Assembly (NCBI GenBank): GCA_963830935.1
Contig: CAWHOC010000005.1
Location: 38,023 to 102,022, forward strand
DNA: 64,000 nt
Reading direction: 5' to 3'
Source of the DNA: an uncultured bacterium
Lineage (GTDB): Bacteria; Patescibacteriota; Minisyncoccia; UBA6257; 2-01-FULL-56-20
The notes under the pieces are model-generated. The model was not told the origin of the DNA and made no database searches. It saw nothing but the letters and a program-made list of their open reading frames with translations. Position numbers and translations under genes: made by a program. Of this stretch, positions 681 to 63,712 are shown in pieces. Within the stretch, counting starts at the first letter, position 1. Every line of letters begins with the position of its first letter.

Positions 681-795
681 GGACCAACGTCCCTTGAACC
701 GCGCCCTGACTTGTGCCCCCGCGAAGAATCGAACTTCGATTACAAGATCCGCAATCTTGCGTCCTATCCGTTGAACGACGAGGGCAAACGCAACC

Positions 796-854
796 GGATG
801 TCCTTTTGAGACGGAAATGCCACGTTGAAACGTGACCGTCTCAAAAGGACATCT
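796..854. repeat. long-stem hairpin, copy C of the conserved-loop hairpin family
   Basis: 18-bp perfect inverted repeat gatgtccttttgagacgg / ccgtctcaaaaggacatc with a 21-nt loop aaatgccacgttgaaacgtga. The loop shares AATGCCAC...GTGA with the reverse-complemented loop of copies A and B. It lies about 60 nt past the 3' end of the minus-strand gene 914..1363. Confidence 0.5.
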
Positions 855-913
855 GGTTGTTTATTGTTGATAATAAAAGAACAAGAGAAGGATACTAGAA
901 TCTCAGGAATTTT

Positions 914-15848: not shown

Positions 15849-15850
15849 AA

Positions 15851-19993: not shown

Positions 19994-20162
19994 CGGCGAG
20001 GAGTTATTAAAAAATTATTAAATATAATTTGACGGGATATTATTTCCTAGTAAAATAGAATTACCGACTGGCGAGGAGGAATCCGCAACGTGTTGAACAA
20101 GCGCAATAGGCCCAGCAATGGGTCTTTTGTGTTTTTTTGCCCGACGCCGTATCATCAGGGTA

Positions 20163-23110: not shown

Positions 23111-23274
23111 GTATTTATTTTAACATACAAAAACGAAAGGGCTCTCCATAAAACAATGGCCAAATAACAAAAAACATCCTATTCGAGGGGCATCGCGGAG
23201 GCACGAAGGTGCCGAGCGCTGAGGCGGCCGGTCAGCAGGCCGGAACGCCGTTCCTGAGAATAGGATGTTTTTTG

Positions 23275-25415
23275 TTATTTGGTTTCCAATTGTTTTATGG
23301 AGAGCCCGATCTTGCCGTTCTCCGCTTTGATGATCTTCGCGCGGACGTGGTCGCCGAGATGGACGACGTCCTCCACCTGCTTCACAAAACCCTGCTTGAG
23401 CTCGGAGACGTGGATCATGCCGTCGGCACCGCCGCCGAGGTCGACGATCGCGCCGAATTCCAGGATCTTCACGATCGGGCCTTCCACGATCTCGCCAACT
23501 TTCCATTCTTTCGTCATGCCCAGGATCTCCGCGACGGCCGCCTCCACCTTTGCGAGGTCGACGCCGGAAACGTACACGCCGCCGTCCTCTTCGATGTCGA
23601 TGCCCGCGAGCTCGTACTTGGCGATGAGGCCGTTGATCATCTTTCCGCCGGGCCGATGACGGTGCCAATCTTCAGCGGATCGATCTTGAACTGGCGGATC
23701 TTCGGCACGAATGGCGAGATCGCCGTGCGCGGCGCGGGAAGCGTCGCCACGATCGTCTTCAAGATGTGCAACCGCGCGTCGCGCGCCTGCGCGAACGCCT
23801 TCTCGAGCAACTCGATCGTAAGCCCATCCACTTTGACGTCCATCTGCATGCCGGTCACGCCATCGTTCGTTCCCGCAACCTTGAGGTCCATGTCGCCATG
23901 ATGATCTTCCGGTCCCTGGATGTCGGTCAGCACTTTGTAGTTATTCACGTCCGAGTGCCGTCCGGCGTGGTGCCCATCATGAGTCCCATCGCGATGCCCG
24001 CGGCCGGTTTCTTAAGCGGCACGCCGGCGTCCATGAGCGAGAGCGCGGACGCGCAGACCGTCGCCTGCGAGGACGAACCGTTGGAAGACATGATCTCCGA
24101 AACGACGCGGATCGTGTACGGGAATTCCTCCTTGCTCGGGATCAAACGCTCGAGCGATTTGCGCGCGAGGTTGCCGTGGCCGATCTCGCGGCGCCCGGGG
24201 CCGCGGAACGAGCCGACTTCACCGACCGAGAACGGCGGGAAGTTGTAGTGCAGCATGAAGCGGCGCTTGCCGGTGGTCTCCATCGTCTCGATCATCTGCT
24301 CGGCGCCGGGCGCCGCGAGCGTCGTGATGGCGAGCGCCTGGGTGTTGCCACGGACGAACAAGGCCGAGCCGTGCGTGCGCGAGAACAATCCCACTTCGGC
24401 ATCGAGCGCGCGGACCTCGTCAAGCTTGCGTCCATCCGGGCGCTGCTCTTTTTCCAAAATATTTTTATGGACGAGGTCGTTCACCATCTCGTCGTACAAG
24501 AATTCAACTGCTTTCCAGTTTATCTTTTCCTTTGTGGCGCCAAATTTTTCTTTGATGTGCAGATTGAGCTCATGATTCAGCGCGCCAACGGCGGTCGTGT
24601 GCTCCACTTTCGTCGGCTTATAGATCGCCGCCTCCAGCTTGTCCGCTAGGAACGCGCGGATCTCTGTTTTGATATCCTCGTCCGGCTCCGCGAGCGCAAC
24701 CTCCGCCTTCGGTTTGCCGATCTCGGCGCGGATCTGTTCCTGGAACGCGATCAATTTGTTGATCTCCTGCTGCGCGAGTTTGAAGCCCGCGACGACATCC
24801 TTCTCCTGCGCATCCAAACCGCCAAGCTCGATCATATTGATGCGATCCTTGGAGCCGGAAACGAACGCGTCGAAGATCGGCAGGTTCGGTTCGGCAAGAG
24901 CGCTGTTATCGGGATTCACGATGAACTGCTTGTCTGCCCGTCTATATCTGCGCGACGCGCACGCCGGCGACCGGGCCGTTCCACGGAATGTCGGAGATAA
25001 AGAGCGCGGTCGAAACGCCAAGCAATCCAACGAACTCCGGATCGTTCTGCTCGTCGATCTGCAGCACGGTGACGACCACCTGGATCTCGCGGCGCATCTT
25101 GTCGTTGAAGAGCGGGCGGATGGTGCGGTCCACCAAGCGACCGGCGAGGATCGCCTCTTCGGACGAACGGCCTTCGCGGCGCACGTAGCGGCTGCCCAAA
25201 ATTTTTCCCGCAGCGTAGAACTTCTCTTCGTAATCCACCTTGAGCGGCAAGTAGTCGATATCGCTATCTTTGCGCGCCATCACTGCCGTCGCGAGCACGA
25301 CGGTCTCGCCGTACTTCGCGATCACCGCCGCGTTCGCCTGCTCGGCCAACGCGGAAACCTCTATCGTCAACGTCTTTCCTGCGATCTCAACGGAAAACTG
25401 CTTTTTCTGTAACAT
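23275..25415 (-). CDS. pnp: polynucleotide phosphorylase (PNPase), split into 4 ORFs by about 3 frameshifts
   Basis: Track ORFs 24942..25415 (RNase PH domain 1), 23945..25030 (alpha-helical region and PH domain 2), 23637..23948 (KH domain) and 23275..23640 (S1 domain) are collinear with PNPase. Confidence 0.9.
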
Positions 25416-26519: not shown

Positions 26520-26522
26520 TAT

Positions 26523-33978: not shown

Positions 33979-34069
33979 AATCAATGAATTTTGAGGATTT
34001 TCGACCTTTCTGATGTACCTAAAAATGCTACCATACCGCTCTTTTGCCCGCAATATTGCTAGATGAGGC

Positions 34070-34465
34070 CTACCCGAGGCATCCGATGGTGAATCCGCCC
34101 GTGCCGTTGCCAAATAACGATGCGACGATAGAGGGAACTCCGGCAGCGAGCAATGCCACCAGTATTCCGATCGCGGCGTACGTTATCGTCTTCCGGCCCG
34201 TGGCAACTTTCTCAGCATCATCGCCCGCGGTGGCGTACTCGAACGCCGCGTATACGATCATGATGACCGAAACGATGATCACCACCCAAATGAACCAGTC
34301 GATGATATTGCACAAGAGCTGTTGGATATCCGCGGCGGAGTTCACCGGAGACGTGATATTCCCAACTGAATTTACGGTAGCCAGGGCGACCGAAACAGAC
34401 AGACCAAGCGAGGCCGACACCAGTGCCATTGATGGCACGACAAGAAACTTCTTAATCGAGTTCAT
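34070..34465 (-). CDS. small secreted pilin-like protein, paralog 2
   Basis: Signal peptide, followed by ...IVYAAFEYATAGDDAEKVATGRKTITYAAIGILVALLAAG. Confidence 0.4.
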   Translation of the reverse strand: MNSIKKFLVVPSMALVSASLGLSVSVALATVNSVGNITSPVNSAADIQQLLCNIIDWFIWVVIIVSVIMIVYAAFEYATAGDDAEKVATGRKTITYAAIGILVALLAAGVPSIVASLFGNGTGGFTIGCLG

Positions 34466-34551
34466 GGTGAAGTTTTATTTTAGTTCGACCATTTATTCTC
34501 TTTAATATCCCATATTGTATCCTAAAACGCCAGCAGGATGGAATGCTGGCG

Positions 34552-34916
34552 TCAGCTGTTGCCAAATAAGCTCTTTATGATCGAGGTGACCCCGGTGGCG
34601 ATGATGGCGATCACAAAACCGATCGCGGCGTACAAGATGGTCTTCCTCCCCTGCGAAAATTTCTCCGGATCGCCGGCGGACGTCGTTATCTGAAAGGCGC
34701 CGACGAGTACCATGATCGCGGTAAGCGGGATCGCGATGGTGGTGGAGATGAAAAAGATAACGTTATTCGCCACGGAGGCGAAGGTCTCGCCGCCGCCGAG
34801 CGGGTCGTTGAGCGCGATCGTCGCGTTGCTCAACGCCAGCGCGGACGCCGCGCCCGTCGGACGAAGATCACCACACTCGCCCATCCCGCGTTCAGCTTTT
34901 TTGCGATCTTCATCAT
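34552..34916 (-). CDS. small secreted pilin-like protein, paralog 3 (frameshift within the signal peptide)
   Basis: MMKIAKKLNAGWASVVIF is in one frame. ...AASALALSNATIA...VGAFQITTSAGDPEKFSQGRKTILYAAIGFVIAII is in the track ORF frame. Confidence 0.35.
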
Positions 34917-34937
34917 TATTTTCATTATAGCAGGTTA

Positions 34938-35479
34938 TCACTGCGCCACGGGCAACGTGGATGAGCAGAAGCTCAGCCCGAACGAATCTCCGTAGTACGA
35001 GCTGTTCTTGTCGGTAACTCCTTCGTCGACATTCAGTTTGCACGCGTCGCTTTCCGAAACGCCCAGCTGGCTCATGAATGCCGCTTCAGCGGCGGCGCGG
35101 ACGTCCTGGAGCGAACTCGTCACTACGGTAAGATCGATGATGAAGCTGCTGCCGGCGCGGACATAGTCGTCGCTATAGTCGCTAGTCTCCGCAAGCACGA
35201 CGTTCTCGTTGTCCGCCGTGATGTAATCCATCGTCTTGTAGAAGTTGTTTACCGTGACGGTCCCCTGATTCGTCCCTATCTGGAACGTGCTTCCCGTAGG
35301 GAAAGAGCTCGTGCCGTTCTGAACGGTACTCGATGTCGACGTTGCCGCCGGTGGAAGATTTCCTGGGGTATTCGTGGGAATCGTGCTCGGAGCCGCGCCG
35401 CGCAAGATAAAATATACGATACGCCGATCACAATGGCAATGACTACCAGCACGATGAGAATGATGATCCCTTTTTTCAT
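34938..35479 (-). CDS. secreted Thr/Ser-rich protein with N-terminal anchor, frameshifted
   Basis: MKKGIIILIVLVVIAIVIGVSYIL (35276..35479 ORF) continues in another frame as ...TIPTNTPGNLPPAATSTSSTVQNGTSS... (34938..35405). Confidence 0.35.
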
Positions 35480-35519
35480 AATGTTTCTTCTATGTATATA
35501 TTTATTATATCTCTATACT

Positions 35520-36470
35520 TCAAAATCCGCATTTTTTCCCATCCGCTTTCCACGGACCGAGGTTCGATCCACCATTGGATAACGTACACGCGACAAGGAT
35601 ATTATTCGCGCCTTGCTGGGCGGCAGCTACGCAATCATTATAGAGTTCAAGCATGATCTCGCTTCCACATTGGCCGTTGGATATCTGACATGCGACACCG
35701 TTGCCTTTGGATGCTGTCGTACATGGCCGACTTGCATCGGGACAGGAAATCGCTTGGCCGGTGAACGCGGCGCCACAATTCTGGCCATCCACGGTCTGCT
35801 TCCATGAATTCGTAAGGTTGATCTGGAAAAGCCCCACCGAGACCGGATAGAGGCCCGTGCCGTTCGGCCCAAGACAATTGTCGCTGCCGCTTTTTAAGCC
35901 CGCGTTGCCCTGGCTCTCATTCTTGCATATCCCCGACCATAACGCCGTATTGTTGGAAAAACAGGTGTTCGCCAGATTCGCGGTGGTGCATAGCGATCCG
36001 GGGCTGGTAACTGGGGGGCAGGAGTTGGGCTGCGGCGAGGGGCCGTTGTTGGGCGCATTACTGGGCGGTGGATTGGTGGCTGCCGAGATCGCGTTCAGCG
36101 TGGGTAGGTTGAGATTGAGCAATTGGGGATTGATCACTTCTAATATCAAGTATGCCCCAGCAAGAAGGAGTAGTCCGATAAGCGCTCCCCAGATCCATTC
36201 CTTCCCATCGCTTTGCGCGGAAGGATTCCCTGCGGAAGCGACATATTTGACTCCTCCGAACACAATGGCGCCGAACGCAAGGATCCCTCCTATCAATAAT
36301 GCAAACTGATAGAAGTTGGCGATATACGCGCCGGGGGCCGTGGAAGTGTTGTTGGCATAGCTCCCCGGAATTCCGACGGAGATCTGCGTCTGGGCAAAAG
36401 CGAGCGCCGGGAGGGCGAGTATCGCGAGAAGCCCGAGCGCCGCTGAAAATTTTACGAGGTTGTTACGCAT
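35520..36470 (-). CDS. pilin-like N-terminal module fused to a Cys-rich C-terminal domain with a lytic-transglycosylase (SLT)-like motif
   Basis: Signal peptide, then YQFALLIGGILAFGAIVFGGVKYVASAGNPSAQSDGKEWIWGALIGLLLLAG (same two-helix motif as the paralogs), a P/N/S linker, then ...CKNESQGNAGL...GLYPVSVGLFQINLTNSW (ES...GLxQ is SLT-like), with many Cys. Confidence 0.45.
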   Translation of the reverse strand: MRNNLVKFSAALGLLAILALPALAFAQTQISVGIPGSYANNTSTAPGAYIANFYQFALLIGGILAFGAIVFGGVKYVASAGNPSAQSDGKEWIWGALIGLLLLAGAYLILEVINPQLLNLNLPTLNAISAATNPPPSNAPNNGPSPQPNSCPPVTSPGSLCTTANLANTCFSNNTALWSGICKNESQGNAGLKSGSDNCLGPNGTGLYPVSVGLFQINLTNSWKQTVDGQNCGAAFTGQAISCPDASRPCTTASKGNGVACQISNGQCGSEIMLELYNDCVAAAQQGANNILVACTLSNGGSNLGPWKADGKKCGF

Positions 36471-36940
36471 GCGTTATTGCCAAACCCACCGATGCCGGTT
36501 ATGCCGAGGACGGTGATCGTCGTATTTACAATGAGATACGCGCAGAGCACGATGGCAAGGCCGATGACGGTGGCGGTAAGCGTCTTCTTCCCGGACTCGA
36601 GCATGCCGGGATTCGCCCCCGCGAGCATGACCATCACCGCTCCCACCACGATCATCACCGGTGCGAGAATAAATATGGCGAGCGACATGCCGAAGTAGAT
36701 GATGTTGATCGCCGTATCAATAAGGTCGCACAGGCTGGTGCAAGGAGGGGCCGCCGGCGAGTTATCGGGATTGGTGGACGGCGCGCCGACGTAAATGCCC
36801 GTGCATGAAACGAGCGGGCCCCAAAAACCGGGCGGCGTTCCCCAAAGATTCGGTGTCGTCCACGCCGACGCGACGAGCGGAAGCGTGAGCGAAGATCCGA
36901 CGATCATGATGAGCAATATTTTTGCGGCGGTGGTGTTCAT
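36452..36940 (-). CDS. small secreted pilin-like protein, paralog 5
   Basis: Signal peptide, followed by ...IIYFGMSLAIFILAPVMIVVGAVMVMLAGANPGMLESGKKTLTATVIGLAIVLCAYLIV. Confidence 0.4.
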   Translation of the reverse strand: MNTTAAKILLIMIVGSSLTLPLVASAWTTPNLWGTPPGFWGPLVSCTGIYVGAPSTNPDNSPAAPPCTSLCDLIDTAINIIYFGMSLAIFILAPVMIVVGAVMVMLAGANPGMLESGKKTLTATVIGLAIVLCAYLIVNTTITVLGITGIGGFGNNACVTTS

Positions 36941-36949
36941 GGATGTTGT

Positions 36950-38268
36950 TTAGTTTCCCGCCGAGTTCATCGCGGCCTGCGCCTGGGTGAGCGCCGTCGT
37001 GGAATCGGCCGCGCCGTTCAGGACGTTCTCTATCGCGGTGTTCATAATACTGTCGTATTGCTCGCTCACGTTCTCGTGCCACGACTTCGCGGTGAGCGCC
37101 TGCGAGGCGAAGACCGCCGTCGTGGGACTCCCGAGGTCCGCCGCGATCACCGACCGCAGCGCCGGCGGCGCGCCCGTGTCCTTCTGGTATATGTTCTCAT
37201 CCGCGGGGGACGTCGTCAAACTGATGATGAAGTTCCAGGCGCCGGCAAGGTTCGTAGTGTCCCGCGAGACCGCAAGGCCGTTATACTTCGCGTAGTTAAC
37301 GGCCACCCCCGCGTTCGCCGGCTGCGGCATCGCCGCGACGCCATAATTGAGGAACGGCGCCGTCGCCTTTATCTCCGCGATCGCCGAAGAGTAATCAAAG
37401 ATGACCGCGGTCTTTCCCTGCGTGAAGCTCGCGAGCGCCGTTCCCATCCCGTCATTCCAGGTATAGTTCGAATTGGCGGCGTTCGAAAATTGCAGATAAT
37501 AATTGAATGCGTTGAGACCGGAGGTGTCGTTGCCGTTCCCGGCGGCGAAGGTCGCGGTGGACCCGCCGGGATACGTCATCTGCGTGCCGTTCTGCATCAT
37601 AAGGAGAAAGATGATGTCGGGCGCGTTCGGGATGCTGGTCTCCGAACCGCCGAGCGCGAGCGCTGCCTGCGTGATCTGGCCCTGCGCGTTCGTCACGCGG
37701 AGCGCCGGGAATGTCGGCCTGGAGCGCTTCCCACGTGCTGGGTATCGTCGCGATGTTCGCGCTATTGAACATGTCCTTGTTATAGATCATCGCGAGCGTG
37801 TCGATGGAAAGCGGCAACGCATAAATAGTAGCCGTTGGACACAAAGTCCTGCGAGACAATATCCGGGAAATCATTCTGCAATGTGACCTGATTGAACGTC
37901 GTCGCGAGCGCGGCGGGGATCGGTATGGCGACGCTCGTCCATTGCGAGAGATCCCGGTTCGGGATCTCGAAAATGTCCGGGCCGGTGCCGGCGGCAAGCG
38001 CCGCGAGCAACTTGGTCCGATATTGGCTTGGATCGATCTCCGTGTATCTGATCTGCGCCTGCGTTCCCGAGCCGGGGCCGGAATACGCCTGGATCATATC
38101 GTTGAATGCTTTGGAGCTGTCCGTGCCCCAAATAGTAAGCGAAACAGCAGAACCGCTTCCGCCGCCTCCCGTGCGGATGCTCAAAAAGAACACCACCGCG
38201 CCAACGATCACCAAAAGTACGGCGGCCCCGATGATGATGATCTGCTTTTGAGTAAAATGTGTTGGCAT
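36950..38268 (-). CDS. ABC transporter extracellular solute-binding protein (family 1), with 2 frameshifts
   Basis: The 37780..38268 ORF has an N-terminal TM, then LTIWGTDSSKAFNDMIQAYSG...IRYTEIDPSQYRTKLLAALAAGTGPDIFEI. It continues in ORFs 37452..37997 and 36950..37696 (MIYNKDMF...IPSTWEAL...). Confidence 0.7.
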
Positions 38269-38295
38269 CTGTTTATATCTTCACCGCTCGTCATC

Positions 38296-38378
38296 TGACC
38301 GTATGCGCATATCCTTTTTTATGCGCTCACCGTCCTCGTGTGGCATTCGCGCATAAAAAGGATATGCGCATACGGTCA
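38296..38378. repeat. long-stem hairpin, copy A of the conserved-loop family; overlaps the gyrA stop codon
   Basis: tgaccgtatgcgcatatccttttttatgcgc - TCACCGTCCTCGTGTGGCATT - cgcgcataaaaaggatatgcgcatacggtca: a stem of about 31 bp with one bulge, and a 21-nt loop identical to that of copy B. Confidence 0.55.
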
Positions 38379-40814
38379 GATCACCACTGTTCCTGCTACG
38401 CGATCGCCGCTCTTAAGATCCATGATGTGCACGCCTTGCGCGGAACGCCCCGTCTTCCGCACCGTCGAGATCTCCGTGCGGATCATCTGGCCTTTCGCCG
38501 AAAGCGCGAATATCTCCTTCTCTTCCGACACAACGTGCGCGGAAACGACCGGGCCCGTCTTCGGCGTCACCTCGGCGGTCTTGATCCCCGACCCGCCGCG
38601 GCTCTGTACTTTGTATTCCTTGAGCGACGTCTGCTTCGCGAAGCCGTGCTCCATGACGACGAGCAGCATTGCCGCATCTCCTCTTATTATATCAAAGCCG
38701 GCAACCTCGTCGTTCTGTTTTTTCAATTTGATCGCGCGAACACCCGCTGCGGTGCGGCCCATCGGGCGCACCTGCTTCTCATCAAAGCGGATGGACTGGC
38801 CCTGCCGCGTGGCGAGCACCACCTGCTCCGCGCCCGTGGTGAGCTTGGCCCACTTGAGGTGATCGCCCTTTTTGAGCGAGAGCGCGATGATGCCGGTGCG
38901 GCGGATGTTCTCAAAATCCTCTAGTGGCGTTTTTTTGATGACGCCCTGCTTGGTGACCATCATGAGATATTTCCGCCCGGTTTTTCCTTCGGCCTTCGCC
39001 CCCTTCGCGGAATAGCTGACGATCGCGCTCACGTTCTCGTCGGCGGGGAGCTCCAAAAAGTTCTGGATGGCTCTGCCTTTGGAGGTACGCGTCGCCTGCG
39101 GGATCTCGTAGACCTTCGTCTGGAACACGCGCCCGCGGTCGGTAAAGAAGAGCACGTTGTCGTGCGTGTTCGCACTGAAGAAGTGCGAGAGGAAATCCTC
39201 ATCGGCCACTTCGGAACCGATCAGCCCCTTGCCGCCACGCCGCTGCACCTTGAACGTGCCCGGCGGCAGGCGCTTGATGTATCCCCCGCCGGAAACGGTG
39301 ACGATCGCCTCCTCTTCCGGAATCAAATCCTCGTCGCTCATCGCCTCCACCGCGCGGCCGACCACCTTCGTGCGCCGCTCGTCGCCATACTTGTCCTTGA
39401 GCTCCGTCACTTCGTCCTTGACGATCTTCAGCACCCGCGCGGTGCTCTTTAATATCGCCTTGAGCTCGTCAATGAGCGCGTGCTTTTCCTTGAGTTCCGT
39501 CTCAATCTTCAACCGCTCGAGCGCGGCGAGCGTCTGCAGGCGCATTTCCAAAATTGCCGTCGCCTGGAGATCGCTCAACTTGAAGTTCTTCATCAGGTTC
39601 GCGTGCGCGACCTCTTTGTCTTCGGACTTGCGGATCGTCGCGATCACCCTATCGATCGCGTCGAGCGCGATCATGAGCCCTTCCAAAATATGCGCGCGTT
39701 CCTCTGCTTTGCGAAGGTCGAACTTCGTGCGGCGCGTGATGATCGTCTTCCGGTGCTCAAGATATTCCGCCAGAATATCCTTCAGCGTGAGCAGGCGCGG
39801 CTCGATGCCGTTCACAAGCGCGATCATGTTGAAGTTGAAGTTCTTTTCGAGGTCGGTGTGCTTGTAGAGCCAGTTTAACACTTTCTGCGGAGCGACGTCG
39901 TTCTTGAGCTCGATCACAATGCGCATGCCGTCGCGGTCGGACTCGTCGCGCAGGTCGCGGATGCCCTCGATCTTTTTGTCCTGCGCGAGCTCCGCGATCG
40001 TGCTGATGAGCTCGGACTTGTTCACCTGGTACGGGATCTCGGTGACGATGATGTCGAACTGGCGGCTATTCTTCTTCTCCACGATCTCCGCCTTCGCGCG
40101 CGTGATGATGCCGCCGCGTCCGGAGACGTACGCTTCTTTGATCGCCTTATTGTCGTAAATGATCCCGCCGGTCGGGAAATCCGGCCCTTTGACGAACTGC
40201 AAAAGGTCCTCGCTCGTGGCGTCGCCGTTATCGGCAAGATAAAGGATGGCGTCGGCGATCTCGCCCAGATTGTGCGGGGGAATGCTCGTCGCCATACCGA
40301 CGGCAATGCCGAGCGCACCGTTCAGTAAAAGGTTCGGCAGCTTCGCGGGAAGCACGGTCGGCTCGTTGCGCGTGCCGTCGTAGTTCGGGATCCAATCCAC
40401 CGTTTCCTTCTCAATGTCCGAGAGCATCTCGTTCGCGATCGCGGCGAGCTTGGCTTCGGTATAACGCATGGCGGCCGGCGGGTCACCGTCCACCGAACCA
40501 AAGTTCCCCTGCCCGCGCACGAGCGGATAGCGCAAGGAAAAGTTCTGCGCCATGCGGACCATCGTGTCATATATAGAGGAGTCGCCGTGCGGATGATACT
40601 TCGCCATCGTTTCGCCGACCACATACGCGGATTTGCGAAACTTGGCGGTGGAAAGCACGCCCATGTCCCACATCGCCCACAACACGCGGCGGTGCACCGG
40701 CTTCATGCCGTCACGAACGTCGGGCAGGGCGCGCGCGACGATCACCGACATCGCGTAGCTAAGATACGAATCGCCCAGCTCTTTGGTAATTTCCTGTGGT
40801 TCCATGTCTGCCAT
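38376..40814 (-). CDS. gyrA: DNA gyrase subunit A
   Basis: 812 aa, with the active-site region ...AAMRYTE... and C-terminal beta-pinwheel repeats. Confidence 0.95.
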
Positions 40815-48215: not shown

Positions 48216-48337
48216 GCTCACGCGCTCACTGCGTTCGCTTTTGAGAACCCTCGGTTCTCAATACTCTCCTACACGGGAGGGGCAGCCTGCCCCTCCCGAC
48301 CCCACCCCTCTCGTTCGATTCCCGTCTGCATCGAGCA

Positions 48338-48413
48338 GCAAGAAAACAAAAACAGGCATATTCGCCGAACGGTCCATCTTCGGGAGGCGAATATGCTGTT
48401 TTTGTTTTCTTGC
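48338..48413. repeat. 27-bp-stem hairpin immediately 3' of the tmRNA gene
   Basis: gcaagaaaacaaaaacaggcatattcgcc - 20-nt loop - ggcgaatatgctgtttttgttttcttgc. Located between the tmRNA 3' end and the att-like repeat, near a 25-bp perfect palindrome cgggaggggcag-c-ctgcccctcccg at about 48274-48298. Confidence 0.5.
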
Positions 48414-48415
48414 TG

Positions 48416-48732
48416 TGGAAGCGGGCGGAATCGAACCGCCGTGTAAAGATAATGCCGATGGGCCGTCTACGAGTGTAGTTTAGCTAGGCTAAGCGAAGTG
48501 ATCATATTTTCGCGCCGGGCGTATGATCGTCAACCTGGCGCTAGTCCCCTTATATAAGACCGGTATCAGTCCAAGGAACCCGGACCGGCCGATCCCGAAG
48601 GGCTAGGCGTAAGCCAGAGCGAACTTCGGAGCTGCAACTTTGGAGTTGGCAGTTATAGGTTGTGCAACAATAACGACGTTGCCAACGACTCGCAAACCCA
48701 TGGATTATCTTTATCGAAGCCAATGCGCTCCC
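48416..48732 (-). ncRNA. ssrA: tmRNA (ssrA)
   Basis: Minus-strand 5' end GGGAGCG-CATTG-GCTTCGAT (tmRNA consensus GGGGnnGnnnnGGnUUCGAC...). The 3' end GGCGG-TTCGATT-CCGCC-CGCTTCC-A is a T-arm with an acceptor that pairs with the 5' end. About 317 nt. Candidate tag ORF ...GCC AAC TCC AAA GTT GCA GCT CCG AAG TTC GCT CTG GCT TAC GCC TAG (ANSKVAAPKFALAYA*). Confidence 0.75.
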
Positions 48733-48856: not shown

Positions 48857-49069
48857 ATGGAAGAAACACATGTAATGCCCGGCAAGGGCATGACCTGCAA
48901 GTGCCCGCATCACAAAGCGATACCAGTACTCATCATCCTCATCGGTTTGGACTTCCTTTTGGGAGCGACGGGAACCCTCTCATGGAACTTCGTTGACGTC
49001 ACCTGGCCGATCCTCTTGATGATCGGCGGCATCGTGAAGCTGGTCCGCTGCGGCTGCTGCAGCAAGTAA
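48857..49069 (+). CDS. small membrane protein with C-terminal CGCC motif
   Basis: 70 aa with two hydrophobic helices (AIPVLIILIGLDFLLGA; WPILLMIGGIVKLV), ending ...VRCGCCSK. Confidence 0.4.
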   Translation: MEETHVMPGKGMTCKCPHHKAIPVLIILIGLDFLLGATGTLSWNFVDVTWPILLMIGGIVKLVRCGCCSK

Positions 49070-49071
49070 AT

Positions 49072-49172
49072 AAAAACAGTCCGTCATTGTCTCGTTCCGA
49101 CGTAGCGACCGCAGGAAGTCCCGCGGGAGGACGTCCACTCGCTCGACAACAACGGACTGTTTTTATTTTTGT
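49072..49172 (+). terminator. large structured terminator-like element (10-bp outer stem enclosing about 60 nt, then a T-run)
   Basis: aacagtccgt ... acggactgtt followed by tttatttttg. The interior contains the palindrome tcccgcggga. Confidence 0.45.
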
Positions 49173-51488: not shown

Positions 51489-51518
51489 TTTTTGAAATCC
51501 CAATTTGGGATTTCAAAA
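51489..51518. repeat. palindromic repeat element, copy 2 (inverted relative to copy 1)
   Basis: tttttgaaatcccaatttgggatttcaaaa lies between the convergent rplT and NUDIX genes. It matches the reverse complement of 15812-15848 over about 26 nt. Confidence 0.5.
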
Positions 51519-52612: not shown

Positions 52613-54403
52613 TTATTTCTTTTTTAAAAACGCCAACATTTTTTCGAGAGGCCACGCGTTGACGATATCTTTGCGCTCCGCCCAGCCGCGGCGCGCCTGC
52701 GCGATGCCGCATTCGAGGAATGCGAAGTGCGCCACGGCGTGCGCGTCCGAATCGATGCTCATCTTCACTTCGGCCTCCACACACTTGCGGATGTGCTCAT
52801 CTTTGAGATCGCTGCGCTCGGGAAGCGCGTCGATCTCCATGATCGTGCCGGTCTTCTTTGCCGTCGCTGATGATCTCGTCAATATCGATATCGATCGGCG
52901 GCCGCTTGTTGATGAGTCGTCCGGTGGGATGGAAGAGTATGTCCACGTGCGGGTTCGATATCGCGCGAACGACGCGTGCGGTCTGTTCCGCGCGCGGTAA
53001 AGTAAAGAACGAGTGCACCGACACACCGACGACATCCAGTTTTGAAAGCGTCTCGTCATCCAAGTCGAGCGTGCCGTCTTTCAAAATATCGCACTCGGTG
53101 CCTTTCAATATTTTTATTTTGCCCGCCAGTTTTTTGTTGACCGCGTCGATCTCTTTCCATTGCGCGCGGATGCGTTTTTCGTCGAGGCCGTGCGTCATCG
53201 CAAGGCGCTTCGTATGATCCGTGATCACGATATACTTCAGCCCGCGCGCGGCGGCGGCTTTGGCCATCGCTTCAATAGAATCGGCGCCATCGGTCCAGTT
53301 GGTCTGCGTTTGGAGATCACCTTGGAGATCACCGTAGCCGATCAGCTTCGGCAGGCCAGGTTTCTTCGTTCGAACTCGCGATCGCGGCCTGCACTTCGCC
53401 GGTGTTCTCGCGCAATTCCGGCTCTGGGTATGCCATGCTTTAATGCTTTATAAACGTCTTCTTCCGTGCGGCCTGCCACGCGCGTGCCCTCCTGCTCCGC
53501 GCCTTTTTTGGTAGCCCTTTTTTGATCTTGAAGAGGCCGTACTCGTTGAGCGTGAGGCCGAGGTCGTTCGCGCGCTTGCGGATCACGACGTTGTGATCTT
53601 TGGAGCCGGTAAAATAGTTGAGCGCGGCGCCGTAACGACTCCGCCGGCACGACGCGCAAGTCGATGTTCAGTCCCGGCGTACTTTGATCGATGACTTCGT
53701 CGGACCTTTCGCGATGACCGTCATGATGCCGGCGATCTTCGTCGATAAAATAATCCATGATCGCTTCGGGTTTGGATGGACACGGCAAGGATGTCGAGAT
53801 CGCCCATCGTTTCCTTCCGCCGCCGCGCGGAACCGGCGACGGTCACCTTTGAAACGCCCGGCACGCTCGCCGATGCCGCTTCTCAAGGTTGCGCACTCGA
53901 TTAAACATGTAACCGATGATGAACCGCACGCCCGAGCCCTTCGCAAACTCGATCCCTTTCAAAATCTTCTCCTCGCTCTTTTTGCCGAATCCTTCAAGCA
54001 CACCGATCTTCCCCTTCTTCGCGGCGGCCTCGAGGTCTTTCAGATTCTTCACGCCGAGTTCTTGATATAACTTCTGGATGGATTTTGGCCCGAGCCCTTC
54101 CACGCGGGCGAGCTCGTCCAGGCGCACCGGCGTTGCCTTCTTCAACTTTTCATATTCCGTACTGCGCCCTTTCGTCACAAGCTCCTCTATTATCTCCGCG
54201 ATGGACTGTCCCACGCCGGGAATTTCTTTCAGCGCCTTGATACCGCCGCGCGCGTAGATTGCCGACACTTCTTCCTCTAGCGCGCCCACCGTCTCCGCCG
54301 CCTTCTCAAACGCGCGCGGCTTGAATTGCACGTGTTGCATCTCTAAATATTCGCCGATCTGGCGCAGGACTTCGGAGACGGATTGATTTGAGGCGGACAT
54401 CAT
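52613..54403 (-). CDS. DNA polymerase X family with C-terminal PHP domain, fragmented by at least 4 frameshifts
   Basis: 53843..54403 has the N-terminal HhH/8-kDa and fingers region ([13 protein letters not shown]..., [22 protein letters not shown]). 53342..53788 has the palm ([10 protein letters not shown]...). 52797..53267 and 52613..53059 carry the PHP motifs ([24 protein letters not shown]). Confidence 0.75.
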
Positions 54404-55407: not shown

Positions 55408-56085
55408 TTACGCCACCGTGTCCCCCGGCTTCCGCTCCTCTGCGGTCTCGGCGGCGTTCACCGCGGCGCGCGTTGAGGTCGTCGGCTTCGGCAGGATCAG
55501 ATCCGGCACGGCAAGGAGCACGAACGCGGCGATGAATGCCATGATGCCGGCGCCCACAAAGACCACATTGTAACCAAGCGTGCCGGCGATGACACCGCCG
55601 AGGAATCCGGCGACGCCCGCGCCCACACCACTCACCGACGAATCAAGCGACCAATCGAGCGAGATCGCATTCTTGTCCAGGTGCCGCGAATAGATAGTGG
55701 GCCACGATGCGTAATAGAACGCGAAAGCGATGGCCTGGACCGCGTGGATAAGATAGAGTTCCCACACCCGCGTGACCCAGCACATCGCGATCGCGGAAAT
55801 GCCGACGAGCAGCAATCCGCCGACGAGCGCCATAAAATCGTCATGTTCGCCGGGCGTACTGTCGAGATAGTTCGCGATGGGAATTTGTGCGACGGAGCGG
55901 ACGATCCAGTAGATCGCCGCCGCGATGCCGATGACCATGAGCGATCCTCCCACCACACGCTGGATGATGAACACGGAGAACACCGGATCGATCAGCCCCC
56001 ATCCGGCAAGTAAAAAGAAATCCGAGATCACGAAAAACTTCACCACCCGGCCCACCTTTACATTGATATTTACTTTAATGCGCAT
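55408..56085 (-). CDS. 6-TM membrane protein (MFS-half-like)
   Basis: 225 aa with six predicted helices. No signature motif recognised. Confidence 0.4.
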   Translation of the reverse strand: MRIKVNINVKVGRVVKFFVISDFFLLAGWGLIDPVFSVFIIQRVVGGSLMVIGIAAAIYWIVRSVAQIPIANYLDSTPGEHDDFMALVGGLLLVGISAIAMCWVTRVWELYLIHAVQAIAFAFYYASWPTIYSRHLDKNAISLDWSLDSSVSGVGAGVAGFLGGVIAGTLGYNVVFVGAGIMAFIAAFVLLAVPDLILPKPTTSTRAAVNAAETAEERKPGDTVA

Positions 56086-56115
56086 AGTTTCTTTCTCTTA
56101 TTATACTGATTAGCG

Positions 56116-56193
56116 AAACAGAAGCGATGTCTTTTTATACGCTCACCGTCCTCGTGTGGCATTTGCGTATAAAAAGGACATCGCTTCTGTTTC
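56116..56193. repeat. long-stem hairpin, copy B of the conserved-loop family; overlaps the stop codon of the Clp ATPase gene
   Basis: gaaacagaagcgatgtctttttatacgc - TCACCGTCCTCGTGTGGCATT(t) - gcgtataaaaaggacatcgcttctgtttc. It has the same loop as copy A and an unrelated stem. Confidence 0.55.
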
Positions 56194-58708
56194 ACGCTTG
56201 GTTTACAAAATCGAATTTGTCATCTTTCACCACGCACTGCACCTTCGCGCCCTTTGCGATCTTCTTGGAGAGCAACGCCTCGGAGAGCGGCGCGCGGATG
56301 TATTCATCGATGGCGCGCCGGAGCGGCCGCGCGCCGTACGCGGGGTCGTAGCCAAGCTTGGCGATTTTCCCGACGGCATCGGGACTGAACGAAAGTATGA
56401 TTCCCTGCTCGTGCAGGGCGGCGGTGAGTTCGCTCAAATTGATGTTCACGATCTGCGGAAGCTGGGCAAGCTCCAGGTTCCGGAACACGATGATCTTCGA
56501 AAATCGGTTGAGAAGTTCCGGCTTCAGTACATCCACAAGCCGCGCCCTCAAATAATCCGCGATCTCCGCCATGGACTGCCCTTTCGCGAGCGCATCGTTG
56601 ATGATGTCCGAGTGCGCGTTCGAAGTGGCGATCACGATCGTGTTCGTAAAATCGATGACGCGGCTCATGTTGTCCGTGAGACGGCCGTCATCCAATACTT
56701 GCAGGAACAAATTTAAAATATCCGGGTACGCCTTCTCAAACTCGTCGAGGAGCACCAGGCTGTATGGCTTTTCGCGCACGGCGTCGGTGAGCGCGCCGCG
56801 CACGGTGCCGTCCGGCGATCCGATAAAGCGGAAGAAGCTCGTCTTATCCTGATACTCCGTCATGTCAAAACGGACCATCAGTTTCTCCGAGCCGAATTGG
56901 ATCTCCGCGAGCTGTTTCGCGAGCTCCGTTTTTCCGACGCCGGTCGGCCCCACAAAAAGGAAGCTCGCAATCGGACCGCCCTTGCGCGCGAGGCCGCTCC
57001 GGTATTCACGCAATGCCTGCGCGACGGCCTTGACCGCCTCGTCCTGCCCGATGATGCGCTCGTGGATGATGTCCTCCATGTGCAACAGCGTCTCCGCTTC
57101 ATTTCCCTCCGCCTCGTGCATAGGGATGTTCACCTTCTCTTCGGCGACGGCCGTCACGCGGTCGGGCGTCACCACTTTCTCCCCGCGCCGCTCGGCGTCC
57201 ACGACGGCGCTCTTCAGCAGCTCCTCGGCGCTCGAGGGAAGGTGCTTATCGTGCAGATATTTCTTCGCGAGCACCACCGCGCGCTTGATCGCGCCAAAGC
57301 TCACCGCGATCTTGGATCGCCGCTCAAGCAAAAAACTTTCGTAGATCAGGATCTTTTCGGCGTCCGCCTCATTGATCTCGTTCACCATGATCGTCTCGAA
57401 GTTCCCGACGAAGTCGCTGCGCGGCTCGATGAACTCCTTGAACTCGTGCGGGTAGGACGTGCCCACGATCGGGAACCGGTTCGAGGTGATGACGGACATC
57501 AAGGCATCCGCCGCGGAAAGGTACGCGGCGCCCGAGGTGCGTACAAGATTATGGATGTCGGGAATAAAGAGGATGATGTTCCCCGCGGTAAGGATCTCAT
57601 CCACCACGTTCTTTAGGCGGGCGTTCAATTCCTCCGGCGCGGCGCCAGCGATAAGGTTCTGCATCTGCAGACCGACGAGGCGCCGGTCGAACAGTCCTTC
57701 GGGAACATCGTCCTTCGTCAGGCAATAGGCAAGATGCCGGATGATGGCCTCCTTCCCGCTTCCCGGCTCGCCGATGAGGATCGCGTTCGGATCGATGGGC
57801 TTGCCGATCGCCTCGATGAGATGCTCGTACTCCTGTTCGTGGCCGATGAGAAATCCCGCCTGGGCGTCCCGCGCGAGATCGGTATAGTCAATGCCATACT
57901 TGTCGAGCACCGGCGTCGGGCGCGATGTCCACGCGCGGTTCATGATGCGATGCGGGATCACGCGGTGGGTCTCCATCGCGAATCCGCCCACCACGTCCGG
58001 GAGCCGCGAGAACGGCCCGATCCTCGTGGCGAGCGCGCTGAAAATGAGCGCGCGCTCAAGATCGCCTTCTTCTATATTGAACAGCGAGAAGAGCCGGTCG
58101 AGCGACTCGTCCGCCATCGCGGGGAGCGCCGAAAAGAGGTCCGACGGCGTGATGAACTCGTGCCCCGCGCCCGCCGCGGAGGCGAACGCGCGCGCGGCGA
58201 GCGGCGTCATAACGTCGGCATACGCCTTCCCCGGCGGCGCGGCGGGGTCTTGCATCAGCGTGTCGAGTTTTGCCTTGAATGCTTTCGGGTCCACGTCCAG
58301 GCGCTGAAGGCCGTTCTGCACCTGGGGAAGTTCGAACAGGCGGCCGGTGAGCTCAAGGATGAAGTTCTTTTTTGTGATGATGCAACGGTCTACCGCGCGC
58401 TCGAGCATGGCGAACGCCGCCGCGTTCATCGTTTCGGCAAGATTCACCCTTCCCGCTTTCGGCAGTTCGGAGATCGGCGTATCACCTTCGCCGCGGTGGA
58501 TCAGGAGGTCGATGAGCACGAGCACGAGAAATATCCCGACATAGAACAGGGTGGGAATATCGCGGGCAAGGAGGAACACGAATGTCGCGACGACGATCAC
58601 AAGGTAGGAAACATAACTGACCACGCGGACGAGCATCCTTCCCGCGATCGTCATGCGCAGGCGCGCGTCGTCAAAATAAAGATCGTACTTAGAGATGTTT
58701 TGCGGCAT
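56192..58708 (-). CDS. membrane-anchored Clp/Hsp100-family AAA+ ATPase with degenerate D1 and intact D2
   Basis: N-terminal hydrophobic helices (RMLVRVVSYVSYLVIVVATFVFLLA, LFYVGIFLVLVLIDLLI). D1 has Walker A GEPGSGKE and Walker B ILFIPDIH, both non-canonical. D2 has GPTGVGKT and LVLLDEFEKA. C-terminal Clp small domain (ARPLRRAI). Start taken at an internal ATG to limit overlap with the upstream gene. Confidence 0.75.
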   Translation of the reverse strand: MPQNISKYDLYFDDARLRMTIAGRMLVRVVSYVSYLVIVVATFVFLLARDIPTLFYVGIFLVLVLIDLLIHRGEGDTPISELPKAGRVNLAETMNAAAFAMLERAVDRCIITKKNFILELTGRLFELPQVQNGLQRLDVDPKAFKAKLDTLMQDPAAPPGKAYADVMTPLAARAFASAAGAGHEFITPSDLFSALPAMADESLDRLFSLFNIEEGDLERALIFSALATRIGPFSRLPDVVGGFAMETHRVIPHRIMNRAWTSRPTPVLDKYGIDYTDLARDAQAGFLIGHEQEYEHLIEAIGKPIDPNAILIGEPGSGKEAIIRHLAYCLTKDDVPEGLFDRRLVGLQMQNLIAGAAPEELNARLKNVVDEILTAGNIILFIPDIHNLVRTSGAAYLSAADALMSVITSNRFPIVGTSYPHEFKEFIEPRSDFVGNFETIMVNEINEADAEKILIYESFLLERRSKIAVSFGAIKRAVVLAKKYLHDKHLPSSAEELLKSAVVDAERRGEKVVTPDRVTAVAEEKVNIPMHEAEGNEAETLLHMEDIIHERIIGQDEAVKAVAQALREYRSGLARKGGPIASFLFVGPTGVGKTELAKQLAEIQFGSEKLMVRFDMTEYQDKTSFFRFIGSPDGTVRGALTDAVREKPYSLVLLDEFEKAYPDILNLFLQVLDDGRLTDNMSRVIDFTNTIVIATSNAHSDIINDALAKGQSMAEIADYLRARLVDVLKPELLNRFSKIIVFRNLELAQLPQIVNINLSELTAALHEQGIILSFSPDAVGKIAKLGYDPAYGARPLRRAIDEYIRAPLSEALLSKKIAKGAKVQCVVKDDKFDFVNQA

Positions 58709-59036
58709 AGAAAAGGATGACGGCGGGAATGGCAATCCATATGATGTAGATGAAGGCGAACACGATCGCAATCAAGAGATAAAATATGCCGCCGATCGCC
58801 ACACGCCCCGCCCGGAACACGATTCCGAGGATCCTGCCGATCACGCTGTAATCCTTATAGAGCGGCTCGAAGAAATGCCGCAGGGTGATGGCGACCGCGA
58901 ACGATTGGTCCGCGGCGGTGATCGCTCCCATAAAACGCCGCGCGATCATGCGCGACCCGTCAACATACCAATGATGAAAAAAGTCCACAAAGCGGTAGAA
59001 AAACCGCCGGGCAAGATAGACGACCGAAAAATCCAT
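58689..59036 (-). CDS. small membrane protein
   Basis: 115-aa track ORF with two C-terminal TM helices. Confidence 0.4.
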   Translation of the reverse strand: MDFSVVYLARRFFYRFVDFFHHWYVDGSRMIARRFMGAITAADQSFAVAITLRHFFEPLYKDYSVIGRILGIVFRAGRVAIGGIFYLLIAIVFAFIYIIWIAIPAVILFYAAKHL

Positions 59037-62575: not shown

Positions 62576-63712
62576 TTATACTACGAAATGCCAGATTTCG
62601 TAAACCGCGGCGAGGATGAACGCGATCGCGACAACGTCGAGCAGTACCTTCTCGCGCCGCGCGAGTGCGAGCGTCCGGCGTCCGACGGAGAGGATCAAAA
62701 GATATTGCGTGCTGATGAACACGCCTCCGGCGAGGCCGACGATCGCGAGGAAATTATTGAATCCCAACAACACGGCGCCGAGCGGGAGCAGGATGATGAT
62801 CGCGCGGGAGAGATAGCTGTTCCACCCGAGATCTTTTTCCATCGCGCCGCGGATCTCCCGCGCGATCGGCACCGACACGACCGCCACCGAAAAGAGCCCG
62901 ACCGCGGCGAGAATATCTTTCCTCCATACGGGCCAGCTCGCGATGCCGGAGATCGTATCGGACGTCACGTGCGACACCGTTCCGATCACGCCGGCGGCAA
63001 AGAGCCAGTAGAGCAGCCCCGCGAAAGCGGTGCCAAGAGCAAAGAGCCAGAAGGCCCCGGGGATAGCCGGTTGCTTTTCGCCATCGTGGACGATCTCTTT
63101 TTTATACGCAAGTTCGTACACCGGCTCGACGGCCGTCCATCCGGCGAGCGCGAATATGGCAACGCCGAACGGGAGAAAAAAATTGACGACTCCGGGAACC
63201 GCGAGGGGCACGCTCGCGAACACCGCGCCGGGATGGCCGGAGAAGAAGATAAAAAGAATGGCGAATGAGACAAGCGCGATGCCCACGCCCTCGAACCACG
63301 CGATCCGCCCCTCGCTTCCCCACACGAGGACCGCGAGCAGGAACCAGAATATGCCGAGTGCGGCGCCATGCGAGATCCCCGGGAAGAGTATCTGCAGGAA
63401 CTGCGTTCCGAGCACGAGATAGGCGACGAAGCTGAGCAACAGGCCGATCACGATCGCGACGAAGCCGATCCAAAATCCCGTCATGCCGAAATAGTTCCGG
63501 GCGAGGCCGAGCAATCGCTCTTTTTCATCCACCGCGGCGAGCGTCCGCAGATAAAGAATATGGGCAACGGAGATGATCGCGATGATCGCGATGAAGTAGC
63601 CGAGCGCGATCAGCCATCCCGACGACTGAATGACGTACGGCACCGCAAAGACGCCTTCTCCGATCGTCGCCGCAGCGACGATCGCCGCGATGGTCACATA
63701 CTTCATAGACAT
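62576..63712 (-). CDS. amino-acid permease-like polytopic membrane transporter
   Basis: 378 aa with about 11 TM helices, Gly-rich helix 1 and an APC-like fold. No definitive signature. Confidence 0.5.
   Translation of the reverse strand: MSMKYVTIAAIVAAATIGEGVFAVPYVIQSSGWLIALGYFIAIIAIISVAHILYLRTLAAVDEKERLLGLARNYFGMTGFWIGFVAIVIGLLLSFVAYLVLGTQFLQILFPGISHGAALGIFWFLLAVLVWGSEGRIAWFEGVGIALVSFAILFIFFSGHPGAVFASVPLAVPGVVNFFLPFGVAIFALAGWTAVEPVYELAYKKEIVHDGEKQPAIPGAFWLFALGTAFAGLLYWLFAAGVIGTVSHVTSDTISGIASWPVWRKDILAAVGLFSVAVVSVPIAREIRGAMEKDLGWNSYLSRAIIILLPLGAVLLGFNNFLAIVGLAGGVFISTQYLLILSVGRRTLALARREKVLLDVVAIAFILAAVYEIWHFVV

Follow-up and report, generated by a model that had tools for sequence, protein, structure and literature searches.

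The DNA considered here is a 64-kb window (64,000 nucleotides, whose positions are used throughout) of the genome of an uncultured bacterium of the Minisyncoccia (Parcubacteria), within the candidate phyla radiation (CPR). The element under study, copy B, is a long hairpin that lies between two minus-strand genes. Upstream is a gene for a ClpB/ClpC-type AAA+ protein, hereafter clpB, whose homologues carry AAA_2 and ClpB_D2-small, in agreement with the Clp ATPase proposed by the first-pass annotation. Downstream is an MFS transporter gene, the ATG of which stands 27 nt beyond the 3′ end of copy B and is preceded by a TATAAT box; in the window, such a box is usually found 8-25 nt ahead of the ATG. 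The tail between hairpin and ATG was considered as a part of the element, copy B and L002 having AATCAG-N-TATAATAA in common (L001-L031 are the other loci and contigs compared, from public genomes and metagenomes). However, TATAAT near an ATG is generic in the window and the tail is taken as the promoter of the next gene.

Copy B is 83 nt long and consists of 30 bp, one bulged base (G56177) and 22 unpaired bases, instead of the 28-bp stem first described. Its stem has a GC content of 45%. The folding energy is -48.3 kcal/mol on the plus strand and -49.0 kcal/mol on the minus strand (z = -9.3 and -8.9, respectively), and none of 200 shuffles is equally stable. The sense strand is the minus strand, so that the loop has the same orientation as the upstream gene. 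The TGA stop codon of this gene does lie within the right arm, as had been noted, in the base of the stem, where its pairs are U56194.G56114, G56193-C56115, and A56192-U56116. The first of these is a wobble when read on the minus strand and becomes a C.A mismatch when read on the plus strand; a G.U pair at the stop codon on the minus strand only is seen in copy B and in L003.

Two further copies are present in the window. A 21-mer of the unpaired stretch, TCACCGTCCTCGTGTGGCATT, occurs exactly twice, at 38327-38347 in copy A and at 56143-56163 in copy B. The two loops are without differences, as the first-pass annotation had claimed. No extra match with up to three mismatches is found in the window and none in 100 dinucleotide shuffles. 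The stems had been called unrelated, which is true of their outer parts (17 bp in B, 25 bp in A) and not of the inner 11-12 bp (YTTTTTATRCGC), which are shared. This inner stem, CTTTTTATACGC/GCGTATAAAAAG, differs between the copies by one compensated pair, A-T in B and G-C in A. On the sense strand the shared part reads CUUUUUAU(A/G)CGC ... GCG(U/C)AUAAAAAG, T and A tracts included, and loop, inner stem, and tracts together make a core of about 47 nt. BLAST of the outer stem of copy B against all sequences gathered in the analysis gave no second copy, and the flanks of A and B are unrelated. Copy A ends 21 nt before a solute-binding-protein (SBP) gene and, like copy B, is placed between two minus-strand genes. 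Copy C, which is diverged, lies between a minus-strand open reading frame (ORF) and a tRNA-Arg gene; its stem has GAUGUCCUUUU in common with copy B, and its apex retains AAAUGC, CAC/GUG, and the 3′ A, the remainder being replaced by a different 5-bp mini-hairpin. A covariance model from all copies, run with filters off, finds only these three copies in the window, all solitary (about 1 per 20 kb). The positions are collected in Table 1.

Table 1. Features of the copy B locus, of the other copies in the window, and of the stems found after clpB.
Feature	Position	Strand	Remarks
ClpB/ClpC-like AAA+ ATPase gene (upstream)	56192..58771	minus	real start possibly downstream of the listed TTG
Copy B, whole hairpin	56113..56195	minus (sense)	covariance model R1 79.7 bits, E 2e-16
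Copy B, sense 5′ arm	56195-56165	minus	plus-strand right arm (56165-56195) GCGTATAAAAAGGACATCGCTTCTGTTTCAC
Site-specific outer stem, 5′ half	56178..56195	minus	takes in the TGA (56194-56192) that ends the Clp gene; paired to 56113-56130
Conserved inner stem, 5′ half	56165..56176	minus	sense CUUUUUAUACGC; pairs with 56131-56142; common to copy A and all other copies
Invariant apical module (unpaired)	56143..56164	minus	sense AAAUGCCACACGAGGACGGUGA (sense 56164-56143); plus strand TCACCGTCCTCGTGTGGCATTT; identical in copy A and 19 public loci
Copy B, sense 3′ arm	56142-56113	minus	plus-strand left arm (56113-56142) GCGAAACAGAAGCGATGTCTTTTTATACGC
TATAAT box	56100..56105	minus	14 nt upstream of the next ATG, 7 nt past the hairpin foot
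MFS_1 transporter gene (downstream)	55408..56085	minus	from a Pfam scan of the window ORFs
Copy A	38290..38384	minus	same apex; stem takes in the last two codons and TGA (38376-38378) of gyrA
Copy C, diverged member	791..859	plus	apex AAAUGCCACGUUGAAACGUGA; R1 65.2 bits
Stem after clpB end, window			AACAGAAGCGAUGUCC
Stem after clpB end, L003 (= L011 = L019)			GAUAGGGGUUUCUC
Stem after clpB end, L009			GUAAGCUUUCCC

The family is real, and independent assemblies contain it again. The exact 21-mer was found at three loci of the genome collection (two contigs of a metagenome-assembled genome (MAG) labelled Saccharibacteria, and the Minisyncoccia MAG SPRUCE_130) and in 16 metagenome contigs, and in no viral contig or phage genome. 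The idea of a hairpin family with a common loop and differing stems is thus borne out by the diverged third member and by 19 public loci where an identical loop caps unrelated stems. When these loci and the window are sorted by flanking genes, the apex RAAUGCCACACGAGGACGGUGA stands at eight independent 3′ ends, those of gyrA, clpB/C, MFS, HlyD-like, ftsE, FAD oxidase, lexA-like, and tRNA-Lys genes, and operon-like pairs such as ftsE/ftsX or a HlyD-like gene and an EmrB-like MFS gene are split by the hairpin. The orientation of the apex relative to the upstream gene is identical in every copy of the main family (8/8 sites; two-sided sign test ~0.008, our calculation). Main-family hairpins start at the stop codon or a few bases upstream of it, and after a tRNA they start 2-13 nt past its end; they have near-perfect stems of 28-38 bp with energies of -50 to -73 kcal/mol.

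Some side observations concern these public loci. The MAG labelled “Candidatus Saccharibacteria” (CAZXCH01; L001, L002) carries a HlyD-like gene and flanking genes about 80% identical to contigs that group with Minisyncoccia loci, so that its label may be loose or the bin mixed. Two decayed copies, L005 3323-3366 and L017 8582-8647, keep the apex and the 5′ arm intact, the 3′ arm being deleted in L005 and degenerate in L017; hence, palindromes erode from one side. Pieces of 12 nt of the apex (CGAGGACGGTGA, CCACACGAGGAC) are also found in coding regions, at 36494-36505 and 63320-63331 of the window and at ~2264 of L018, in a T4SS-pilin-like gene, an unknown gene, and a lexA-like gene; three matches vs. 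about 0.4-0.6 expected is a borderline excess.

Pairing, not sequence, is what the stems have in common. In a model-based alignment of 15 distinct copies, 97.3% of the cells are paired and both sides have changed at 19 of the 22 pairs. None of 500 shuffles matches this pairing and covariation, and slid registers fall to 36-60% paired. The inner stem appears as ATGCGC/GCGCAT, ATACGC/GCGTAT, GTACGC/GCGTAC, and GACGCGC/GCGCGTC, and the T and A tracts covary too (CUUUCUUU/AAAGAAAG). For the apex we propose, tentatively, a modelled layout in which the long stem would be followed by an asymmetric internal loop (AAAUGC opposite A), a mini-helix CAC-A-CG/AGGA/CG-GUG, and a 3′ junction A. RNAalifold favours another small helix. 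The one non-identical apex found by the covariance model, that of the second copy in L009 (1030-1125), is AAAUGCUAUACGAGGACGGUGA; there, both C's of CAC are replaced by U, giving U.G pairs at the proposed CAC/GUG.

A second feature of the stems is that they absorb the end of the gene. In 11 of the 12 protein-gene copies, 4-13 nt of the ORF end, stop codon included, are paired in the stem, and codons covary with the non-coding arm in L003 (GTG...CAC) and L009 (GCG...CGC). The coding ends match those of relatives that have no hairpin: L024 and L009 both end in ...ANE*, and L028-L030 and the window in ...GTVVI*. Thus, the coding arm is the ancestral one, from which the far arm was derived as an inverted copy. 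Template switching is documented as a process that creates, perfects, and extends or maintains RNA hairpins (Monttinen and Loytynoja, 2022; PMC8794818), and switching within a strand would explain the near-absence of mismatches as well as the outward growth of the palindromes.

The same architecture occurs in the window with unrelated apices. The hairpin at 23140-23307 has a stem of about 46 bp that takes in the last 11 codons and the TAA of pnp; its sense strand is the minus strand, the 5′ arm lies within the end of the PNPase KH-S1 ORF (23275..23640), and the apex is a GC-rich module of 73 nt. Another hairpin, 49068-49168, begins in the TAA of a small plus-strand ORF (48857..49069), and a third, 48336-48415, directly adjoins the tmRNA gene (48415-48732, minus) at its 3′ end. 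Both have AT-rich arms of the AAAAACAG/CTGTTTTT type and structured GC-rich interiors, and the sense apex of the latter, UCCCGAAGAUGGACCG, resembles a weak model match at L011 710-768 (AAUCCCGAAGGGUGAGCCC). Other inverted repeats were seen as well. A near-threshold match to RF02924 (skipping-rope; 32.8 bits vs. a gathering value of 36.7, E 9e-4) at 2567-2650 (+) falls inside the inverted repeat 2547-2670, between an AAA/DUF4143 gene and a HU-like gene. A sub-threshold match to the tmRNA model (34.3 bits vs. 47) at 19923-19993 (+) overlaps the inverted repeat 19935-20089 and may represent a fragment similar to a tRNA; it is distinct from the real tmRNA at 48415-48732. Finally, a perfect palindrome without loop, TTTTGAAATCCCAA|TTGGGATTTCAAAA, occurs at two intergenic sites, 15806-15854 and 51490-51518, and looks like a repeated operator-type site.

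Relatives were compared through clpB and gyrA orthologues, which were gathered by protein without reference to the loop. In three lineages clpB is followed by a hairpin with the family apex: the window, L003 (= L011 = L019), and L009, the last being syntenic with the window, MFS gene included. In L024, L025, and L027 the clpB-MFS spacer is 3-21 nt long and the hairpin is absent; in L020 (94% amino acid identity to the window), L021, L022, L023, and L026, clpB has other neighbours and no hairpin. L009 carries copies after both clpB and the MFS gene and its relative L024 carries neither. The 3′ end of the MFS gene bears a hairpin in L007 as in L009, and none in the window or L024. No hairpin is seen at gyrA in the closest relatives, whose gyrA-SBP spacers are 0-25 nt long (TAA|ATG in L028, overlapping TAATG in L029, 25 nt in L030) vs. 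107 nt with hairpin A in the window. The hairpin, where it occurs, separates two genes that are otherwise tightly coupled. Between the 25-nt spacer of L030 and the left arm of copy A there is a resemblance (~17/23), which fits a state before insertion as well as a remnant after deletion. In clpB orthologues without the hairpin (L020 1331-1384, L022 1423-1740, L023 1308-1530), we also observed a conserved promoter-like box, AAAGATTAAAAAA...TTGACTT, after the gene, and beyond it a canonical terminator, a weak match to a tRNA model (L022 1621-1692, 35 bits), and then the MFS gene. In the window this segment is lost or was never present.

How much time separates these lineages can be judged from 4-fold sites, whose identity to the relatives is only 0.5-0.7, even at 93-96% amino acid identity. 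With synonymous sites so near to saturation, gain of a hairpin is indistinguishable from its loss, and a complete turnover of the outer stem between orthologous copies is what a near-neutral rate gives if pairing is kept. The apex behaves differently, being identical at 22 of 22 positions among the orthologous copies of the window, L003, and L009. Such identity across lineages of this age means that the apex is not neutral (0.6^21, about 2e-5 per pair). The public copies were collected by an exact-loop search, and only the second L009 copy, found by the covariance model, is unbiased; nevertheless, if the apex drifted, an exact-match search could have found no diverged lineage. The least biased pair is L007 and the second L009 copy, whose homologous stems (GAGAAUACCCACCUC / AGGUAUACCCAUCUC) point to one inherited insertion and whose apices differ at 2 of 22 positions vs. 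about 7.5 expected at a 4-fold identity of 0.66 (binomial p ~0.008). L001/L005 and L008/L017 likewise have recognisably homologous stems and an identical apex. The apex is thus conserved beyond the neutral rate and is under selection. In addition, nearly identical contigs (L010/L016, L001/L006, L003/L011/L019) carry identical hairpins and hence give no sign of very recent movement.

A number of other identities were considered and rejected. Among Rfam 15 families only generic miRNA-precursor models match, the best at 36.6 bits vs. a gathering value of 84. A small ORF, ATGCGC...GCGCATAA, reads as 11 codons on both strands, which is a consequence of the palindrome, and its ATG becomes ATA or GTA in other copies. 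The frame from an ATG within the loop is not conserved either, P-H being replaced by L-Y in the second L009 copy and a stop being met in copy C. Recoding of the stop codon is excluded by the gyrA orthologues, in which TGA, TAA, and TAG all occur as the stop at one and the same position; thus, TGA is a genuine stop. A BLAST comparison of 14 stems with 242 kb of sequence gave no match, contrary to the idea that the stems derive, layer on layer, from earlier sites, and a phage or plasmid origin was dropped as no viral-contig or phage match was obtained. An intrinsic terminator has a GC-rich stem of 5-15 bp and a short loop, whereas copy B has 30 bp, 45% GC, and a 22-nt apex; the sense 3′ flank of copy B, UAAUCAGUAUAAU, has no U tail, and a terminator scanner makes no call. 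There is no consistent U tract 3′ of the stem in other family copies, and the T tract 5′ and the A tract 3′ of the inner stem pair with each other. Ordinary terminators in these genomes are short AAAACAGCC-loop-GGCTGTTTT or AAAACAGCC-loop-GGCUGUUUU hairpins.

The explanation that we favour, with evenly balanced confidence, is that copy B belongs to a lineage-restricted family of hairpins at gene ends, found in a clade of the Minisyncoccia, and acts as a 3′-end or intercistronic RNA hairpin whose apex would be recognised by a factor and whose stems would be kept and extended by template switching. Copy B would be transcribed on the minus strand as the 3′ end of the clpB/C-like mRNA. In this RNA, a 30-bp helix with the stop codon in its foot would be capped by the invariant 22-nt module, made up of the internal loop AAAUGC/A and the 5-bp mini-hairpin. 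The long helix is most likely a 3′-end structure, either a barrier to 3′-to-5′ exonucleases or a point of termination or of RNase III-type processing, and the hairpin would uncouple the Clp gene from the MFS gene, which carries its own TATAAT box. The invariant apex is most probably the recognition site of a putative trans-acting factor, protein or RNA, common to all copies. At the DNA level, intrastrand template switching would copy one arm onto the other and lengthen the palindrome outward.

Several points weigh against this explanation. Action at the RNA level is deduced from the orientation, a few wobble pairs, and the pattern of a conserved apex on a variable stem, and G.U counts on the two strands did not discriminate between them. 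The orientation of copy C is opposite to that of the flanking minus-strand gene and of tRNA-Arg. The exact-loop search inflates the apparent invariance of the apex. The short spacers without hairpin in L024, L025, and L027 at clpB and in the closest relatives at gyrA look like sites before insertion and favour a mobile origin. The explanation does not account for the arrival of the 47-nt core at new sites, and the apex-binding factor is putative.

The inverted pattern of conservation and the locally templated stems are unusual features. It is possible, if rather doubtful, that the family is a “tagged” gene-end hairpin, a class of cis-element not described so far. The apex would then enrol gyrA, clpB, ftsE, lexA-like and efflux genes, and tRNA-Lys in one post-transcriptional regulon under a CPR-specific factor; the element would spread without a transposase, its stem being built on site by fold-back or template-switch copying of the last bases of the host gene. 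If this were true, the pnp hairpin and that at 49068-49168 would make the architecture a general way of building 3′ ends in reduced genomes.

The main competitor is a non-autonomous mobile palindrome, similar to REP/RAYT, MITE, or Correia elements, in which the core of about 47 nt, alone or with its stem, inserts into tiny spacers, the apex is the site of a mobilising enzyme (for example a HUH/Y1 transposase acting on single-stranded hairpin DNA), and any effect on RNA is secondary. We consider it unlikely, even though many observations speak for it: orthologous sites are filled or empty among relatives (clpB-MFS, gyrA-SBP, MFS 3′ end), the core is near-identical at unrelated sites in different MAGs, the unrelated stems at the clpB site in three lineages fit independent hits into a spacer of at most 21 nt, near-perfect palindromes are expected of young copies, and copies coincide with synteny breaks (L003 vs. 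the window, L007/L009 vs. L024). However, transposases, integrases, and reverse transcriptases are all missing from 50 window ORFs scanned with Pfam, and searches of viral contigs and phage genomes gave no copy. There is no target-site duplication and no conserved terminal repeat; variation is greatest at the ends, contrary to what transposons show. Inherited copies (L007 and the second L009 copy, L001/L005, L008/L017) keep their apex at 35-45% 4-fold divergence, which is unexpected for dead selfish copies. Near-identical contigs show no polymorphism, and the density is low, with three copies in 64 kb. Mobility and a function in RNA need not exclude each other, by analogy with REP and Correia elements, which have both.

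The window ORFs are ordinary housekeeping ones, including clpB, recA, ftsK, pnp, rpsO, gyrA, PolX, UDG, and pilin-like genes. Immediately downstream of the gyrA-SBP region, as in L031, come five small T4SS_pilin-like genes in a row (33586-36940). Genes split into 2-4 ORFs or fused are found at 36950-38268, 52797-54403, 13924-15167, 23275-25030, and 26253-28574 (solute-binding protein, PolX, cysteine desulfurase, PNPase, and S15 joined to a glycosyltransferase), which suggests assembly indel errors or pseudogenes. The single bulges of hairpins A and B arise from unequal T and A tracts, with T5/A5 and a bulged base in B and T6/A5 in A; the tracts are symmetric (T6/A6) in public copies, and their inequality in the window may share this cause.

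Alternatively, the apex could be a base-pairing seed. The hairpins would be small RNAs derived from 3′-UTRs (untranslated regions), or decoys, and the loop would pair with the 3′ end of 16S rRNA (AGGA-C-GGUGA resembling an extended Shine-Dalgarno (SD) sequence) or with mRNAs carrying complementary 12-mers. Near-total invariance of some 21 nt is indeed more typical of pairing between nucleic acids than of protein contact, the apex contains GAGGA and GGUGA, and the loop 12-mers mentioned above (window 36505, 63320; L018 2264) are found outside the hairpins. We nonetheless hold this possibility to be improbable. RNAduplex of the loop with the tmRNA and tRNAs of the window and with a generic 16S 3′ end is no better than with shuffled loops, copy C keeps the junctions and replaces the SD-like part, and the 12-mer excess is borderline (p ~0.01-0.02), with sites in unrelated coding frames on different strands.

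Still less probable is a site that acts in the DNA, namely a cruciform or hairpin bound by a recombination or other DNA-binding protein, or else a signal of the uptake type; the position at gene ends would merely reflect tolerance to insertion. The palindromes are perfect in DNA, the strand asymmetry of G.U pairs is not significant, and CPR bacteria are thought to depend on DNA uptake. Moreover, GCGCATAA may resemble part of a Xer-type half-site such as that of Escherichia coli dif. Yet one copy per 20 kb or so is far below the density of uptake signals, the half-site-like motif is single and in the wrong arrangement, the asymmetric apex is the conserved part here whereas attC and dif conserve base or arms, and the orientation relative to the upstream gene is fixed at all eight independent sites. 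Least credible of all is a plain intrinsic terminator whose shared loop is a functionless relic of local duplication. The position would fit, with a stop codon on one side and a promoter-like box on the other. However, no U tract follows the stem, the T tract being found on the 5′ side, canonical terminators in these genomes have short GC stems and A/T tracts in normal order, the flanks of A and B are unrelated, and the apex recurs across genomes with saturated synonymous sites.

The RNA hairpin with a factor-recognised apex would give a concrete handle on the biology of transcript ends in CPR bacteria and on the origin of hairpins, its function being deduced from sequence. To our knowledge, the CPR (Patescibacteria), which make up a large share of bacterial diversity, are a group in which the ending, processing, and stabilisation of transcripts are almost unknown, and for this clade they are not yet open to study in culture. 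An invariant tip amid synonymous saturation points to a specific putative trans-acting partner and to a co-regulated set of housekeeping genes. The stems are an unusually clear natural example of palindromes that absorb stop and last codons by inverted copying, which bears on how RNA hairpins originate and stay perfect. The elements mark places where compact operons are split, and the covariance model R1 could be used to annotate them.

How does this family compare with known systems? A literature search for hairpin or palindromic elements in CPR bacteria returned nothing relevant. REP elements are dispersed extragenic palindromes found at gene 3′ ends and inside operons; they share a transcript with the upstream gene, in which they hinder exonucleases or bring about partial termination. 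The present hairpins resemble the REP/BIME elements of enterobacteria and pseudomonads, which are associated with RAYT transposases, in their position at gene 3′ ends and inside operons and in being gained or lost between relatives. They differ in that REPs conserve the stem and a 5′ GTAG-type tetranucleotide and have variable loops; here, the loop does not vary, each site has an outer stem of its own, and the feet are the ends of different genes with nothing in common. REPs are 20-40 nt long, number in the hundreds, and often form clusters of alternating orientation, whereas the hairpins are 70-100 nt long and single, with three solitary copies in 64 kb. No RAYT (Y1 HUH transposase) was found among 50 ORFs of this 64-kb part of the genome. 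The Correia (CREE, Neisseria), ERIC, and RUP elements are also similar, being intergenic inverted repeats of about 100 nt that are co-transcribed, form long hairpins which can serve as RNase III substrates and alter the expression of neighbours, and show insertion polymorphism. However, Correia elements are bounded by conserved terminal inverted repeats of 26 bp and duplicate a TA target, whereas here only the central 47 nt are common, each site has its own termini, and the far arm repeats the gene end in inverted form. Comparison of filled and empty sites (L009/L024, window/L028-L030) shows no direct repeat of the MITE type, the flank being duplicated in inverted form; insertion polymorphism between related genomes, as in MITEs, is present, with gain not distinguishable from loss. 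Integron attC sites, which conserve the R''/R' core sites at their base around a variable centre and follow cassette ORFs beside an integrase, are a poor match, for here the apex is conserved, the neighbours are housekeeping genes (gyrA, clpB, ftsE, tRNA), and the window holds no integrase. DUS/USS signals, short motifs present at about 1 per kb and often in inverted pairs that form terminators, contrast with a single asymmetric apex every 20 kb or so.

Template-switch hairpins and quasi-palindrome correction (PMC8794818) share with the family perfect stems, simultaneous “compensatory” changes, and outward growth, and fit the inverted copies of coding ends; they are a mutational process and not an element family, and explain neither the invariant apex nor its appearance at new sites. 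T7 RNase III sites, iron-responsive elements, the histone 3′ stem-loop, and lambda boxB all have an invariant apical or internal loop on a stem conserved in pairing only, as here, and T7 RNase III sites and the histone stem-loop further resemble the family in lying at message 3′ ends and setting 3′-end stability. Hairpins of the T7 type provide at least 20 bp of double-stranded RNA between cistrons, and copy B would offer a 30-bp helix between clpB and the MFS gene with the proposed 6/1 internal loop. There is no match in sequence or structure with these protein-recognised hairpins, the lower stem here is much longer and perfect, and the partner protein is putative. The element itself was undescribed before; the known kind to which it belongs is that of dispersed gene-end palindromic hairpins or of protein-tagged 3′ stem-loops.

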